A DNA stretch of 64,000 bases, from assembly GCA_045564835.1 (NCBI GenBank), contig JBJLGN010000021.1, positions 1,073 through 65,072 on the forward strand, read 5' to 3'. Made by a program: the position numbers and the translations under genes. The number at the start of each line of letters is the position of its first letter. Within the stretch, counting starts at the first letter, position 1. This stretch comes from Dehalococcoidia bacterium. GTDB lineage: Bacteria; Chloroflexota; Dehalococcoidia; Lucifugimonadales; GCA-002694895. This document shows, one piece after another, positions 469 to 51,083 of this stretch. The notes beneath the pieces are model-generated. The model saw only the letters and a program-made list of their open reading frames with translations. It was not told the DNA's origin and did not search any database.

Positions 469-586
469 TCCTGGCGATTACTTATTGTCCCATATCGTTG
501 CCAATACAGTATCGTCAGCGCAAAAGCGTTTCACTTCCGTGTTCGGGATGGGAACGGGTGGGTCAACTTCGCCATAATCACCAGGA
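469..586 (-). rRNA. rrf: 5S ribosomal RNA
   Basis: The reverse complement reads TCCTGGTGATTATGGCGAAGTTGACCCACCCGTTCCCATCCCGAACACGGAAGTGAAACGC...GGGACAATAAGTAATCGCCAGGA. It carries the universal CCCATCCCGAACACGGAAGT core, and the termini form helix I (TCCTGGTGATT / AATCGCCAGGA). Confidence 0.92.
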
Positions 587-47843: not shown

Positions 47844-49313
47844 ATGTTATTCAATTCTCCTGAATTTATTTTTATTTTTATTCCTATCGTTTTGCTTTTT
47901 GCTTTCCTTGCACAGAATTATATAAATAAAGAAGCAAACATATACATAATAATTCTAAGTTCTATTTTCTTTTATGGTTTTTGGAATATATCTTATGTCC
48001 CATTATTACTAGGGTCAGTTCTATTTAATTTTCTAATACATAAAAAAATTAAAGACAGTAGAGTTTTAATAACAGGGTTAATTATTAATGTATCTGTACT
48101 ATTATTTTTCAAATACACAAATTTTTTCATTGATAATTTATCACTGATACTCGACAAAAAATTTACAAATTATAATATAGCTCTACCATTAGCGATTTCA
48201 TTTTTCACATTTCAGCAAATTGCTTTTATAGTAGATAGTTATAAAAATAAAACAACTAAGTTTTCAATTCATGAATATATACTTTTCATCACTTTTTTCC
48301 CTCAATTGATAGCAGGACCAATTGTTAGGTTTCATCAATTTATACCTCAATTACAATCTAGAAAACTTAATATTTCATTAGAAAACTTTTCAATTGGAAT
48401 CGTTATATTCTCAATTGGGTTATTCAAAAAAATTGTATTAGCAGATCAGCTTGGTATAGTATCAGACAACGTATTCTTACAATCAAATCAACATACACTA
48501 TCGTTTTTCGAATCATGGGGCGGCATTTTAGCTTTTACTTTTCAAATATATTTTGATTTCTCTGGATATTCAGATATGGCTATTGGATTAGGGCAAATTT
48601 TCGGAATAAGATTACCTTTGAATTTTAATTCTCCTTATAAATCAAAAAGTATTATAGATTTTTGGAGAAGATGGCATATATCACTTTCCTCATTTTTAAA
48701 AGAATACATTTACATTCCATTAGGCGGAAATAAAAAAGGGACATTTATTAAATACTTAAATATATTAGTTGTGATGATATTAGGAGGTATATGGCACGGA
48801 GCAGGATGGAACTTTATATTATGGGGATTCTCTCATGGGATTTTATTAATCATAAATCACGAAATTAACAGGAAAAATATTAAAATATTTTTACCAACAT
48901 TAGCAAAACAAATTATTACTTTCTTACTAGTTACAATAACTTGGGTTTTATTTAGAGCAGAAAATATATTGTCAATTAAAAACTTTTATTCAGGAATGAT
49001 TGGGCAAAATGGATTTTATTTAGATCACAGATTAGAAAAGTTTATACCATTTACTTCTTCATTAATAATATTCGAAGGGTTGCACATTGGAAGTTTTGAT
49101 TTGGGAGGAGTTTTTTATATAGCTATATCTATGCTGATAATTTCGCTATTTGCAAATACAAATGAAATTATTAATAAAAAAGAAAAATCATTAATTAATT
49201 TGAAATTTGATTTTAATATAAAGGGATCAATATATTTAGCAACAATATTATTTATATCCATTCAACTTATGTTTAATATTCCCAAAACGGAGTTTTTATA
49301 TTTTGATTTTTAA
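47844..49313 (+). CDS. MBOAT-family membrane O-acyltransferase (AlgI/DltB-like)
   Basis: Polytopic. Conserved-His region FWRRWHISLSSFLKEYIYIPLGGN. Starts 2 nt after hisB. Confidence 0.85.
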   Translation: MLFNSPEFIFIFIPIVLLFAFLAQNYINKEANIYIIILSSIFFYGFWNISYVPLLLGSVLFNFLIHKKIKDSRVLITGLIINVSVLLFFKYTNFFIDNLSLILDKKFTNYNIALPLAISFFTFQQIAFIVDSYKNKTTKFSIHEYILFITFFPQLIAGPIVRFHQFIPQLQSRKLNISLENFSIGIVIFSIGLFKKIVLADQLGIVSDNVFLQSNQHTLSFFESWGGILAFTFQIYFDFSGYSDMAIGLGQIFGIRLPLNFNSPYKSKSIIDFWRRWHISLSSFLKEYIYIPLGGNKKGTFIKYLNILVVMILGGIWHGAGWNFILWGFSHGILLIINHEINRKNIKIFLPTLAKQIITFLLVTITWVLFRAENILSIKNFYSGMIGQNGFYLDHRLEKFIPFTSSLIIFEGLHIGSFDLGGVFYIAISMLIISLFANTNEIINKKEKSLINLKFDFNIKGSIYLATILFISIQLMFNIPKTEFLYFDF

Positions 49314-50217
49314 AAAATTTTTATTAATATTATGTTTAATTATGGGATTAGCACAAATACTTGTCATATCTCATAATTTATATTACGACAAATTTGGTCT
49401 AGTTAAACAAAAAAATGAAATATTAATCACTAGTGATGAAAGATATTCAAAATATTTACTATCATATAAATATATACCAGAAAATTATGACGGAATATTA
49501 ATTGGCCCATCTGTGTCAGGAAATTTAAACACTTCAAATATCTCAAATTATAAAATATACAATGCTTCTGTAAATGGGGGGAACTATTCTGAATTAAAAT
49601 TAATCAGTGAAAGAGTTTTACAATCCAATAAAATCAAATTTTTAATTATTTGTTTACATCCTTATGCTTCAAAAAACAGTAATCTAAAAACAAATCAAAT
49701 TAATTCAAAATTTTATTGGCTAAATTTAGTTGGAATTGAACCAATTAGTTACAAAATCAAATCATTATTCAAAAAACAATTAAATAATGTTAATACATTT
49801 CACTCAAGTAAAGATGGATATAATGATTTTAATTTGCTAAATGAAAATGTTAATTTACAAAACATAATAAATTCCACTAAAAATGATCCTAATTATAATA
49901 AAGATATTTTCATAGATCCAAAATCATTAGAAGATTTACAAATAATAATTAATAATGCACATAAAAATGATATCAAAATCGTCAGTTATTTTTTTCCGTA
50001 CTACTTTGAGTTACTTGAAAATCAAAAAAGATCTGGAAGTTGGAATGTATACAAAAATAAAATTTCTCAACTATTTTCAGAAGAAGATATTCTATTAGAT
50101 ATGAATGAAATTGAGTTTAAACATATAAATCAAGATATAAAATCATATTCTGATGGGCATTTAAGTTATATAGGTGCAGATAAGGTAATCAAAGAAATAG
50201 TAAAAAAACTGCCATAA
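49303..50217 (+). CDS. Hypothetical membrane-anchored protein, probable partner of the MBOAT enzyme
   Basis: TTG start overlaps the MBOAT end by 11 nt. N-terminal TM helix. Its position is analogous to the DltD/AlgJ-type partners of MBOAT proteins, but no motif was recognised. Confidence 0.45.
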   Translation: MIFKKFLLILCLIMGLAQILVISHNLYYDKFGLVKQKNEILITSDERYSKYLLSYKYIPENYDGILIGPSVSGNLNTSNISNYKIYNASVNGGNYSELKLISERVLQSNKIKFLIICLHPYASKNSNLKTNQINSKFYWLNLVGIEPISYKIKSLFKKQLNNVNTFHSSKDGYNDFNLLNENVNLQNIINSTKNDPNYNKDIFIDPKSLEDLQIIINNAHKNDIKIVSYFFPYYFELLENQKRSGSWNVYKNKISQLFSEEDILLDMNEIEFKHINQDIKSYSDGHLSYIGADKVIKEIVKKLP

Positions 50218-50230
50218 TTACAAAACAAAA

Positions 50231-50260
50231 GGCTAAAAGAATTAATTCTTTTAGCCTTTT
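50231..50260 (+). terminator. Rho-independent terminator (bidirectional-looking)
   Basis: GGCTAAAAGAA (50231-50241), loop TTAA, TTCTTTTAGCC (50246-50256), followed by TTTT and preceded by AAAA. Confidence 0.6.
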
Positions 50261-50357
50261 GTAAGCTATATTAGGCTCACATTACAAATATCTCGGCTTA
50301 GAAATATTTGTAAAATAATATAGCTCAAACAATATATCAGCTATTGTATAAGAAAAA

Positions 50358-50402
50358 TAGAGAGGGTAACCGGATTCGAATCGACGACCTTCTACTTAGA
50401 AG
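50358..50402 (-). pseudogene. Decayed 3' half of a tRNA (tRNA-Gly-like fragment)
   Basis: 36 of 45 positions are identical to the 3' half of the intact tRNA-Gly at 51008..51052, including the 12-mer ACCGGATTCGAA (T-arm). Similarity stops in the anticodon loop. There is no 5' half, and the T-stem and acceptor stem are mismatched. Confidence 0.45.
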
Positions 50403-50561
50403 TTTCCTTAAATGTATATCTCCGTGTAAGTATTTAATTTTAATATATCAAAATCTACAAAAAAAGATATGAGAATGGCTCCTGGATGTATTTAACTGAT
50501 AAAAAATGAAATAATGTTATTTGATAATTTAAATACAAAATCATTAAATTTATTGTGGTAC

Positions 50562-50594
50562 AAAAAAACTAACACTTTATTAATAAAGTGTTAG
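50562..50594 (-). terminator. Rho-independent terminator of the Cys-rich mini-ORF
   Basis: CTAACACTTTA (50569-50579), loop TTAA, TAAAGTGTTAG (50584-50594). A7 at 50562-50568 gives U7 on the minus strand. It lies 19 nt past the ORF stop. Confidence 0.55.
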
Positions 50595-50612
50595 TTTTAA
50601 AGTGTTAGTTTT

Positions 50613-50717
50613 TTATGATTTACACTGACAAGCTGTGCTGCAATCATTACAGCAATCATTACAGTCTTTACAGCAACTAGCGCTGCAATCATTACAGCAA
50701 TCTAATGTTTCGCTCAT
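50613..50717 (-). CDS. Unannotated 34-aa cysteine-rich peptide (metallothionein-like or RiPP-precursor-like)
   Basis: MSETLDCCNDCSASCCKDCNDCCNDCSTACQCKS has 11 Cys in 34 residues and an internal perfect 21-nt duplication encoding DCCNDCS. AGGTGA lies just upstream of the ATG, and a terminator follows. It is below the track size cut-off. Confidence 0.45.
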   Translation of the reverse strand: MSETLDCCNDCSASCCKDCNDCCNDCSTACQCKS

Positions 50718-50739
50718 GTATCACCTATATATTAAATTG

Positions 50740-50844
50740 TTAAGTATGCAAATACATATTAAGTATGCTTAAAGCATATTAAGTATGTAAATGCATATTA
50801 AGTATATATTAATGTAATTAAGTATGCAAATACATATTAAGAAT
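50740..50844. repeat. Six tandem 19-20 bp direct repeats (TTAAGTATGyAAAtrCATA-type), iteron/operator-like
   Basis: TTAAGTAT(G) recurs at 50740, 50759, 50779, 50798 and 50818, with a partial copy (TTAAGAAT) at 50837. Units 1 and 5 are identical (TTAAGTATGCAAATACATA). Unit 2 contains the palindrome TATGCTTAAAGCATA. Confidence 0.8.
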
Positions 50845-51007
50845 TTCCAATAGAATATAGAAAAATCTACAATGAAAGATACATGCATGCCTCTTTGGTG
50901 AATTTATCTATTTTGGGATATTAAACGGGGGACTTAGCACGGTAAATTGAGCAAATTACAATAAATCTCTATGAAAGGTTGCTTGCCATTTCTATTCAGT
51001 AGATAAA

Positions 51008-51083
51008 TGGAGCGGGAGACCGGATTCGAACCGGCGACATTCTGCTTGGAAGGCAGATACTCTAGCCGCTGAGTTACTCCCGC
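51008..51083 (-). tRNA. tRNA-Gly (anticodon UCC), CCA encoded
   Basis: The reverse complement folds as GCGGGAG-TA-ACTC-AGCGGCTA-GAGT-A-TCTGC-CTTCCAA-GCAGA-ATGTC-GCCGG-TTCGAAT-CCGGT-CTCCCGC-T-CCA. This is a perfect 76-nt cloverleaf. Confidence 0.92.

Follow-up and report, generated by a model that had tools for sequence, protein, structure and literature searches.

The 64,000-nucleotide (nt) stretch analysed here, hereafter the window, belongs to a Dehalococcoidia bacterium (contig JBJLGN010000021.1 of assembly GCA_045564835.1, forward-strand positions 1,073 to 65,072) and carries on its minus strand a very short open reading frame (ORF) of exceptional cysteine (Cys) content. The initial annotation of the window had described this element as a 34-amino-acid (aa), 11-Cys frame with a perfect 21-nt internal duplication, the string AGGTGA directly upstream of its ATG and a hairpin with a U7 run behind its stop codon, and each of these components is borne out by the DNA, in the following arrangement.

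50613 to 50717, minus strand: the Cys-rich ORF, 34 codons plus a TAA stop, encoding MSETLDCCNDCSASCCKDCNDCCNDCSTACQCKS
50720 to 50726, minus strand: Shine-Dalgarno (SD)-like AGGTGAT, a 7-mer match to the anti-SD complement
50637 to 50702, minus strand: internal coding repeats, an exact 21-nt duplication encoding DCCNDCS, nested in a 12-nt periodicity
50562 to 50612, minus strand: intrinsic terminator, its palindrome arms occupying 50582-50598 and 50565-50581, its U7 run 50562-50568

The predicted product has a mass of 3.6 kDa, an isoelectric point (pI) of 4.05 and a grand average of hydropathy (GRAVY) of -0.34, and its Cys residues follow the pattern CCxxCxxxCCxxCxxCCxxCxxxCxC, the ORF standing out from the whole window by its Cys content (31%, as opposed to 22% in the next open frame and 1.06% in the long ORFs). 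Its GC content is 38%, as compared with 20-27% in the flanking spacer, and the stop-to-stop frame exceeds the 34 codons by one codon only, located 5' of the ATG. The AGGTGA string (50721-50726) extends with T50720 to the 7-mer listed above, whose GG, equivalent to the end of AGGAGG, sits 6 nt 5' of the ATG, which is an optimal spacing, the match as a whole lying 3 nt ahead of that codon; matches of at least 5 nt precede 10 of the 51 long ORFs of the window (~20%), matches of at least 6 nt lie ahead of 1.35% of all window ATGs, and such sparse use of SD sequences in this genome renders the 7-mer informative. Behind the stop codon, a perfect 17-bp palindrome (50565-50598) followed by T7 constitutes the terminator (-18.2 kcal/mol, z = -4.6), and a tandem 14-nt second copy of its 5' arm (50599-50612) directly abuts the stop, giving the hairpin two alternative 5' arms; both resulting hairpins are terminators that share one U-run. 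A convergent 291-aa gene with a hairpin of its own comes next, and the ORF is not part of an operon. Within the coding sequence, the exact 21-nt copies occupy 50637-50657 and 50682-50702, a third copy at 71% identity lies at 50649-50669, and the unique, non-repeated 3' tail contributes two more Cys (CQC).

The ORF had also been put forward as unannotated, which the public record confirms: the NCBI protein numbers of its exact neighbours run from MFL2767508 (MBOAT) to MFL2767511 (amidohydrolase), a numbering that fits only the 291-aa and SDR genes in between and therefore leaves the Cys-rich ORF without an entry in the source metagenome-assembled genome, and there is no gene call in this gap on any related contig. 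Six neighbouring proteins do have exact public copies, whose cluster mates are labelled Chloroflexi/Chloroflexota and originate in marine samples, those of Tara among them. At the DNA level, the ORF recurs in five further independent marine-metagenome contigs (L295, L297, L298, L310 and L322), which match the window at 99.4-100% identity across 0.8-5.5 kb of aligned flanking sequence and represent a near-clonal, low-GC marine population with a divergence of only 0.03-0.4%. Together with the window, they define four alleles.

34 aa, 11 Cys: MSETLDCCNDCSASCCKDCNDCCNDCSTACQCKS (window and L310)
38 aa, 13 Cys: MSETLECCKDCCNDCSASCCKDCNDCCNDCSTACQCKS (L295 and L322)
41 aa, 14 Cys: MSETLECCKDCKDCCNDCSASCCKDCNDCCNDCSTACQCKS (L297)
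41 aa, 14 Cys: as in L297 except N27K (L298)

The 41-aa form is composed of MSETLE, two 45-nt modules (CCKDCKDCCNDCSAS and CCKDCNDCCNDCSTA, identical at 41 of 45 positions) that duplicate the 15-aa unit CCKDCxDCCNDCSxx, and a terminal CQCKS; relative to it, the 34- and 38-aa alleles are 21- and 9-nt deletions between short direct repeats, and the coding repeats as a whole are the site of 9-, 12- and 21-nt in-frame length polymorphism. The ATG, the frame and the stop are kept in all four alleles and six assemblies, so that the frame-disrupting indels in relatives that had been named as the mark of a mere DNA repeat are not encountered. The sole point substitution in the ORF, N27K, mirrors a K/N difference already present between the two modules. 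Across alleles, the predicted mass varies between 3.6 and 4.4 kDa and the pI between 4.05 and 4.4, Cys makes up 32-34% of the residues, and there is not a single His, Phe, Trp or Tyr. A 39-nt repeat upstream of the ORF is present in three copies in the window and L297 and in one copy in L295, L298, L310 and L322, independently of the ORF allele; aside from two point changes in the upstream repeat array of L297, the intergenic region is otherwise invariant.

We consider it somewhat probable, judging by its sequence and taking together the three readings that posit a translated product, that the Cys-rich ORF is a translated gene. This view is supported by an SD sequence, ATG, stop and terminator in gene-like geometry, by the raised GC content and by an ORF that is intact in six assemblies. 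As to what such a gene might encode, we tentatively favour, on compositional grounds and as a possibility that falls short of a probability, a cytoplasmic, island-borne and repeat-polymorphic metallothionein-like peptide of an undescribed family. Small Cys-rich proteins carrying metal-thiolate clusters make up the metallothionein superfamily (PMC7558416; PMC10612145), and the resemblance to them noted in the initial annotation holds with regard to composition (a mass below 5 kDa, the high Cys fraction, CC, CxxC and CxC motifs, neither His nor aromatic residues), which is its sole basis, but does not extend to a match with any model. Given that the peptide sequence contains no N-terminal hydrophobic segment or signal peptide, the product would stay in the reducing cytoplasm, and a secreted disulfide-rich peptide is unlikely. 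There, its 11-14 thiolates might wrap several metal ions as thiolate clusters, with a capacity that by analogy would amount to some four Zn/Cd, or alternatively six to eight Cu(I), per peptide, and the peptide might act as a metallothionein-like metal buffer, store or detoxifier. The models for this stoichiometry are M4Cys11 and Cu(I)-thionein chemistry: the alpha-domain of mammalian metallothionein accommodates 11 Cys in about 31 residues as M4Cys11, and fungal Cu-thioneins are short metallothioneins whose ligands are all Cys. An AlphaFold2 prediction from the single window sequence yields no confident fold (mean predicted local distance difference test 68.5, predicted template modelling score 0.33), a result that is compatible with metal-dependent folding and is not evidence for it.

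Comparison with described systems brings out both likenesses and differences. The modular internal duplication and the lack of a predicted stable metal-free fold are, in addition to size and Cys content, shared with metallothioneins in the broad sense, whereas the window peptide is acidic, is rich in Asp/Asn rather than Lys/Ser/Gly and has no detectable sequence similarity to them. SmtA adopts a zinc-finger fold with His ligands and hydrophobic residues, in which Zn4 is bound by 9 Cys plus His (PMC10612145, PMC7558416), and genes of the SmtA type are accessory and metal-related in marine cyanobacteria (PMC10612145, PMC3865332). The window peptide is, like BmtA/SmtA (Pfam Metallothio_Pro; 1JJD), a small bacterial Cys-rich protein, but all its alleles are free of His, it lacks a hydrophobic core, and it does not match the Metallothio_Pro hidden Markov model; membership in that family is hence rejected, and the earlier remark that the SmtA-type pattern is missing agrees with zero matches to SmtA-type or other curated metallothionein models. 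MymT of M. tuberculosis, a 4.9-kDa Cys-rich Cu-binding protein, was likewise found as a small non-annotated ORF (PMC7558416). It resembles the window peptide in size class and in having been missed by annotation, and differs from it in that the Cys density is much higher here; NCBIfam returned 0 families at E <= 10, the presence of a MymT model in the libraries being unchecked. The expression of MymT is induced by Cu.

The term island-borne refers to the surroundings of the ORF, which comprise further elements.

51008 to 51083, minus strand: tRNA-Gly(TCC), proximal cassette boundary and island integration site, 290 nt upstream of the ORF
50740 to 50856, minus strand: upstream array, 3 x 39 nt direct repeats with a 19-nt sub-period (5.3 units)
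50351 to 50402, minus strand: degenerate copy of the tRNA-Gly 3' half, from the anticodon loop, 81% identity over 52 nt; distal boundary resembling an attachment (att) site
50442 to 50497 and 50854 to 50909, no strand assigned: 56-nt imperfect direct repeat, 75% identity, bracketing array, ORF and terminator

Read along the minus strand, the order is SDR gene, tRNA-Gly(TCC), a spacer of ~150 nt, the 39-nt repeats, the SD sequence and ORF, the terminator, the tRNA remnant and the 291-aa gene. The initial annotation had overlooked this tRNA-linked island site, as it had the near-palindromic core of the ORF, which corresponds to a long RNA hairpin. Each unit of the upstream array contains the palindrome TATGyATTTrCATA, separated by CTTAA. 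The 605-bp interval holds only the Cys-rich ORF, its overlapping frames and a 39-aa open frame in the upstream array (50769-50888, minus strand), and no integrase is encoded in it; the Cys-rich ORF is the sole gene-like cargo of a tRNA-Gly-linked cassette of ~600 bp. The 56-nt repeat, of uncertain significance, could be an older duplication or insertion boundary or a chance occurrence in AT-rich DNA.

In related contigs, the DNA that follows this tRNA gene is different, from which we infer a tRNA-linked island hot spot. L325, which encodes a homologue of the 291-aa protein at 84% identity, carries the tRNA-Gly 3' half at the equivalent spot as a perfect copy, with unrelated DNA behind it (L325:1030-1110), and L001, L013 and L018, whose SDR is 90% identical, have other sequences after tRNA-Gly, the genes found there (L001:6915-7130, L013:6915-7200) specifying an 858-aa BNR-like protein and an 87-aa ORF together with an epimerase. 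Among the metagenome contigs of the window's own population, moreover, at least nine end exactly at 50254, just beyond the terminator of the 291-aa gene, or begin in or beside the tRNA (~50996-51051), which suggests that assemblers stop where several variants of the interval coexist in the population. Islands targeted to tRNA genes are known to have integrase-less derivatives (cis-mobilizable elements). The present cassette resembles such islands in that an intact tRNA gene bounds it on one side and a repeat of the 3' half of that gene on the other, and in that relatives have different DNA at the site; it departs from them in its small size, in the missing integrase and in the decay of the distal repeat (81%), the latter making its current mobility doubtful. 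Two further observations concern the same position in relatives. A tRNA-like fragment (gtcgccggttcaagtttcgg) lies ~115 nt past the tRNA in L001; and a short post-tRNA-Gly ORF that starts MKVVLLLFLLL is common to L018 (5190-5269) and L013 (7114-7165), its off-frame reading being artificially Cys-rich (KWCCCCSSCFVCC...), a reminder that TGY-rich frames (TGY denoting the Cys codons) arise easily from GTT/GCT/CTG-rich DNA.

Several results weigh against the metallothionein-like reading, and some of them against the ORF being a gene at all. The first of these relates to transcription. The only promoter-like hexamer pairs of the minus strand lie in the 39-nt array, but promoter-like hits show no excess over shuffled sequence (7 versus 6.2 +/- 2.6), and the alleles with one copy of the 39-nt repeat have zero hits at threshold; a promoter of the Cys-rich ORF is thus not established, and the description of the locus as a complete minimal transcription unit goes too far in this respect. 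The ORF could be transcribed together with tRNA-Gly, which lies 212-290 nt upstream on the same strand, no terminator having been found between the two by a simple consensus scan that requires at least 3 G-C stem pairs.

The second group of adverse results comes from homology and family searches. No metallothionein family was retrieved by Pfam hmmscan (E <= 10) with the 34-, 38- or 41-aa allele; Pfam and NCBIfam together gave zero relevant families, which applies to eukaryotic metallothionein and copper-storage models too, and a single match to DUF3741 (E = 2.2), a sequence search of the PDB (E <= 10) gave zero matches, phmmer gave 0 matches among 1.84 billion representative proteins, and tblastn/blastn of the peptide against phage and plasmid collections gave no match. 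Equally, no PHROG family matched, exact look-ups of all four alleles in protein collections found no entry, and a word-index search with the doubled peptide as query returned 0 scored matches. The negatives from protein databases are weak evidence, given that the ORF is uncalled even on contigs that carry it. At the nucleotide level, a search of metagenome and genome contigs for nine TGY codons with free spacers produced, among the matches listed, only (TGY)n microsatellites and low-complexity DNA, and five patterns run against viral contigs found nothing related, only low-complexity tracts and high-GC phage tRNA-Gly genes. Homologues, the absence of which had been counted in advance as an argument against a gene, do exist in the five further contigs, but these belong to the same near-clonal population, and none was found beyond it in the searches above, an ORF of this kind being skipped by gene callers. 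The genomic neighbourhood is likewise devoid of metal-related functions as far as it was covered: a Pfam scan of 30 window ORFs (all those of at least 90 aa in 31.5-64 kb plus ten smaller ones in 0.6-23 kb, such that the scan of all ORFs of at least 90 aa reaches ~13-19 kb to either side of the Cys-rich ORF) detected no metal transporter or metal-sensing regulator.

The third group concerns the repeats and feeds the main rival explanation, namely that the ORF is incidental, a by-product of near-palindromic 12/21/45-nt repeat amplification in a decaying tRNA-Gly att-site remnant, which may be transcribed only as a tRNA trailer without any protein function. The initial annotation had argued that so many Cys codons would hardly arise by chance, and this is correct if the codons are taken as independent (for at least 11 TGY in 34 codons, P ~ 7e-10 per position and 9e-5 per window); the codons, however, belong to repeats of 12, 21 and 45 nt nested in one another, and chance should yield a single module-sized event (6 TGY in 20 codons) ~1.2 times per window. 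As the array has a 12-nt period and is built from the near-palindromic unit TGCTGTAAT-G-ATTGCAGCA, both the Cys richness and the in-frame indels could be by-products of repeat dynamics, the latter because repeat periods of 9, 12 and 21 nt preserve the frame even without selection. Synonymous codon use is atypical: the score of 0.10 lies between the real-gene and out-of-frame distributions, at the 5th percentile of the windows in the former and the 90th of those in the latter, TGC accounts for 5 of 11 Cys codons as against 26% in the genome, and AGC for 3 of 5 as against 7%. An incidental origin would also accord with three of six frames being open across the repeat, with the position of the cassette between tRNA-Gly and its degenerate 3' half and the missing integrase, and with the lack of homologues elsewhere. 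It does not account for a 7-mer SD sequence and an ATG placed right at the 5' edge of that frame, when the background for such matches is as low as that given above, nor for a stop codon that abuts the terminator, nor for a non-repeated tail that extends the Cys pattern; repeat periods that are all multiples of 3, the coding-like GC content and the integrity of the ORF in six assemblies likewise argue against it. On balance we regard an incidental ORF as unlikely, though it is the strongest competitor of the metallothionein-like peptide; were it correct, the Cys-rich ORF would be ordinary island debris.

The same repeats have consequences at the RNA level: the 21-nt units being near-palindromic, two copies are predicted to form one long hairpin in the RNA. 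Compared with shuffled sequence, the ORF region is the more stably folded in the 34-aa allele (z = -2.5; 3 of 200 shuffles as good) and in the 41-aa allele (z = -2.7), with the same central hairpin in both. One may therefore ask whether the functional entity is a structured small RNA, made up of the long imperfect hairpin of two repeat units and the terminator, with the ORF as a coincidence, the more so as it is the rare AGC and TGC codons that create the complementarity of the hairpin. The SD sequence and the ATG would then be unexplained, however, one of the terminal pairs in the predicted helix is weaker with N27K, and a known RNA family is rejected, for in Rfam 15 only the tRNA reaches threshold, the other matches scoring 12.7-29.1 bits where gathering scores are 60-100. 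A small RNA as the sole function is, in our judgement, improbable. The structured messenger is also relevant to a second open frame that overlaps the first.

50597 to 50692, minus strand: +1-frame ORF, a 31-aa hydrophobic, basic-tailed peptide, MIAALVAVKTVMIAVMIAAQLVSVNHKKLTL, overlapping the Cys-rich ORF

It is conceivable, if very improbable, that this is the functional frame and that it encodes a type I toxin-like membrane peptide from a structured mRNA in an island. Its length is unchanged in all alleles, and its GRAVY of 1.49 and pI of 10.3, the mRNA structure and the island context would suit such a toxin. On the other hand, the frame has no SD sequence, the hairpin encloses its ATG, neither an antisense promoter nor an antisense RNA is evident, the substitution in L298 places a Lys (M12K) in the hydrophobic stretch, Pfam and NCBIfam give no match, and in codon score it does not surpass the Cys frame.

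A translated Cys-rich peptide need not bind metal as a metallothionein would, and the gene-like anatomy described above would serve just as well for a thiol/redox or persulfide buffer, an Fe-S or zinc-ribbon-like partner or a substrate of modification enzymes whose genes lie elsewhere. Modification is brought to mind by the Asp or Asn that stands beside almost every Cys, as these residues recall the acceptors of ranthipeptide-type thioether cross-links. Against such other roles, the first Cys is preceded by only 5-6 residues, which leaves no leader peptide, the 30 window ORFs scanned include no gene for a radical-SAM, YcaO or Lan-type enzyme or for a transporter, the ORF stands outside any operon, being closed off by a terminator ahead of a convergent gene, and the ferredoxin-type motif CxxCxxCxxxCP is lacking; we hold them to be decidedly unlikely. 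The doubt already voiced over a precursor of a ribosomally synthesized and post-translationally modified peptide (RiPP) is fully shared here: leaders of this class usually span at least 20 aa, the first Cys has no more than MSETL(D/E) ahead of it, and with no maturase at hand in the scanned ORFs, ranthipeptide/SCIFF, thiopeptide and lanthipeptide precursors are rejected alike.

A regulatory use of the Cys codons was considered as well, in which ribosome stalling at these codons in a Cys-sensing leader peptide would control downstream genes. There is a precedent in the leaderless polycysteine short ORFs of mycobacteria, which are Cys-responsive attenuators (bioRxiv 10.1101/834739), and the window ORF shares with them its shortness, its unannotated status and a high density of Cys codons; the two alternative 5' hairpin arms could also be seen in this light. 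The mycobacterial ORFs are, however, the first cistrons of Cys-metabolism operons in which RNA structures mask the ribosome-binding site belonging to the following gene, whereas both alternative hairpins of the window are terminators with the same U-run and leave no anti-terminator, only the tRNA remnant and the convergent gene lie downstream, and no Cys-metabolism genes are adjacent. With no downstream cistron, a Cys-sensing leader is effectively refuted and receives next to no credence from us, and a polycysteine attenuator is discarded on the same footing, because the strong terminator straight after the stop prevents the ORF from being the first cistron of a longer transcript.

Returning to the metallothionein-like peptide, the polymorphism of the locus admits a further, more speculative step. 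Recombination or slippage between the 9/12/21-nt coding repeats would shift the number of Cys (11, 13 or 14), and recombination between the 39-nt upstream repeats would shift their copy number (1 or 3), which may alter expression. If these processes matter to the cell, the locus would represent a new bacterial metallothionein family on a miniature tRNA-linked cassette, whose metal capacity and expression are tuned by repeat recombination, and the ORF would be a contingency locus by which one streamlined marine Dehalococcoidia population meets the trace metals of the surface ocean. We think this extended scenario unlikely, and more doubtful than a metallothionein-like peptide as such. Should a metallothionein nature be true, it would add a new and sequence-unrelated family to the few bacterial metallothioneins (SmtA/BmtA, MymT), place a metallothionein in an abundant, uncultured and genome-streamlined marine lineage in which trace-metal economy matters, and furnish a clean natural case in which modular Cys repeats and promoter repeats vary inside one population, a polymorphism that could be correlated with ocean metal data. 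Gene callers systematically drop such ORFs, leaving protein databases blind to their spread.

A few observations made in passing deserve mention. Four IMG/VR contigs (L022, L023, L042 and L050) encode viral proteins of 395-983 aa with long Cys-rich tracts of a heptad-like period, CCTDC(T)x, with as many as 158 Cys in 395 aa. A conserved C-terminal domain is common to two of them, PHROGs yielded only a weak tape-measure match, and homology to the window peptide cannot be demonstrated, although the motif CCxDC recurs. The upstream 19/39-nt repeat (motif ACTTAATATG) has a weak blastn match (E ~1e-4; L331:2988-3099) to the Photobacterium damselae plasmid NZ_CP035461.1, where it falls on a 12-copy 9-nt tandem array (TAATATGCT) upstream of genes for an AAA-ATPase and a 99-aa protein on conjugative plasmids; the layout of that array resembles a partition centromere or operator, and the match may be a coincidence between AT-rich repeats. 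The wider neighbourhood of the cassette comprises the SDR, amidohydrolase, PTE and MBOAT genes, the gene of the 291-aa protein and his genes. The MBOAT O-acyltransferase and the 291-aa protein (47844-50217), the latter without a Pfam domain, have relatives at 95% and 84% identity and thereafter none above 45% among 5.8 billion proteins, which suggests that the pair is an accessory module beside the his operon. At the start of the window, a 5S rRNA gene (469-585, minus strand) is followed by a thioredoxin/AhpC-like ORF (616-1188).

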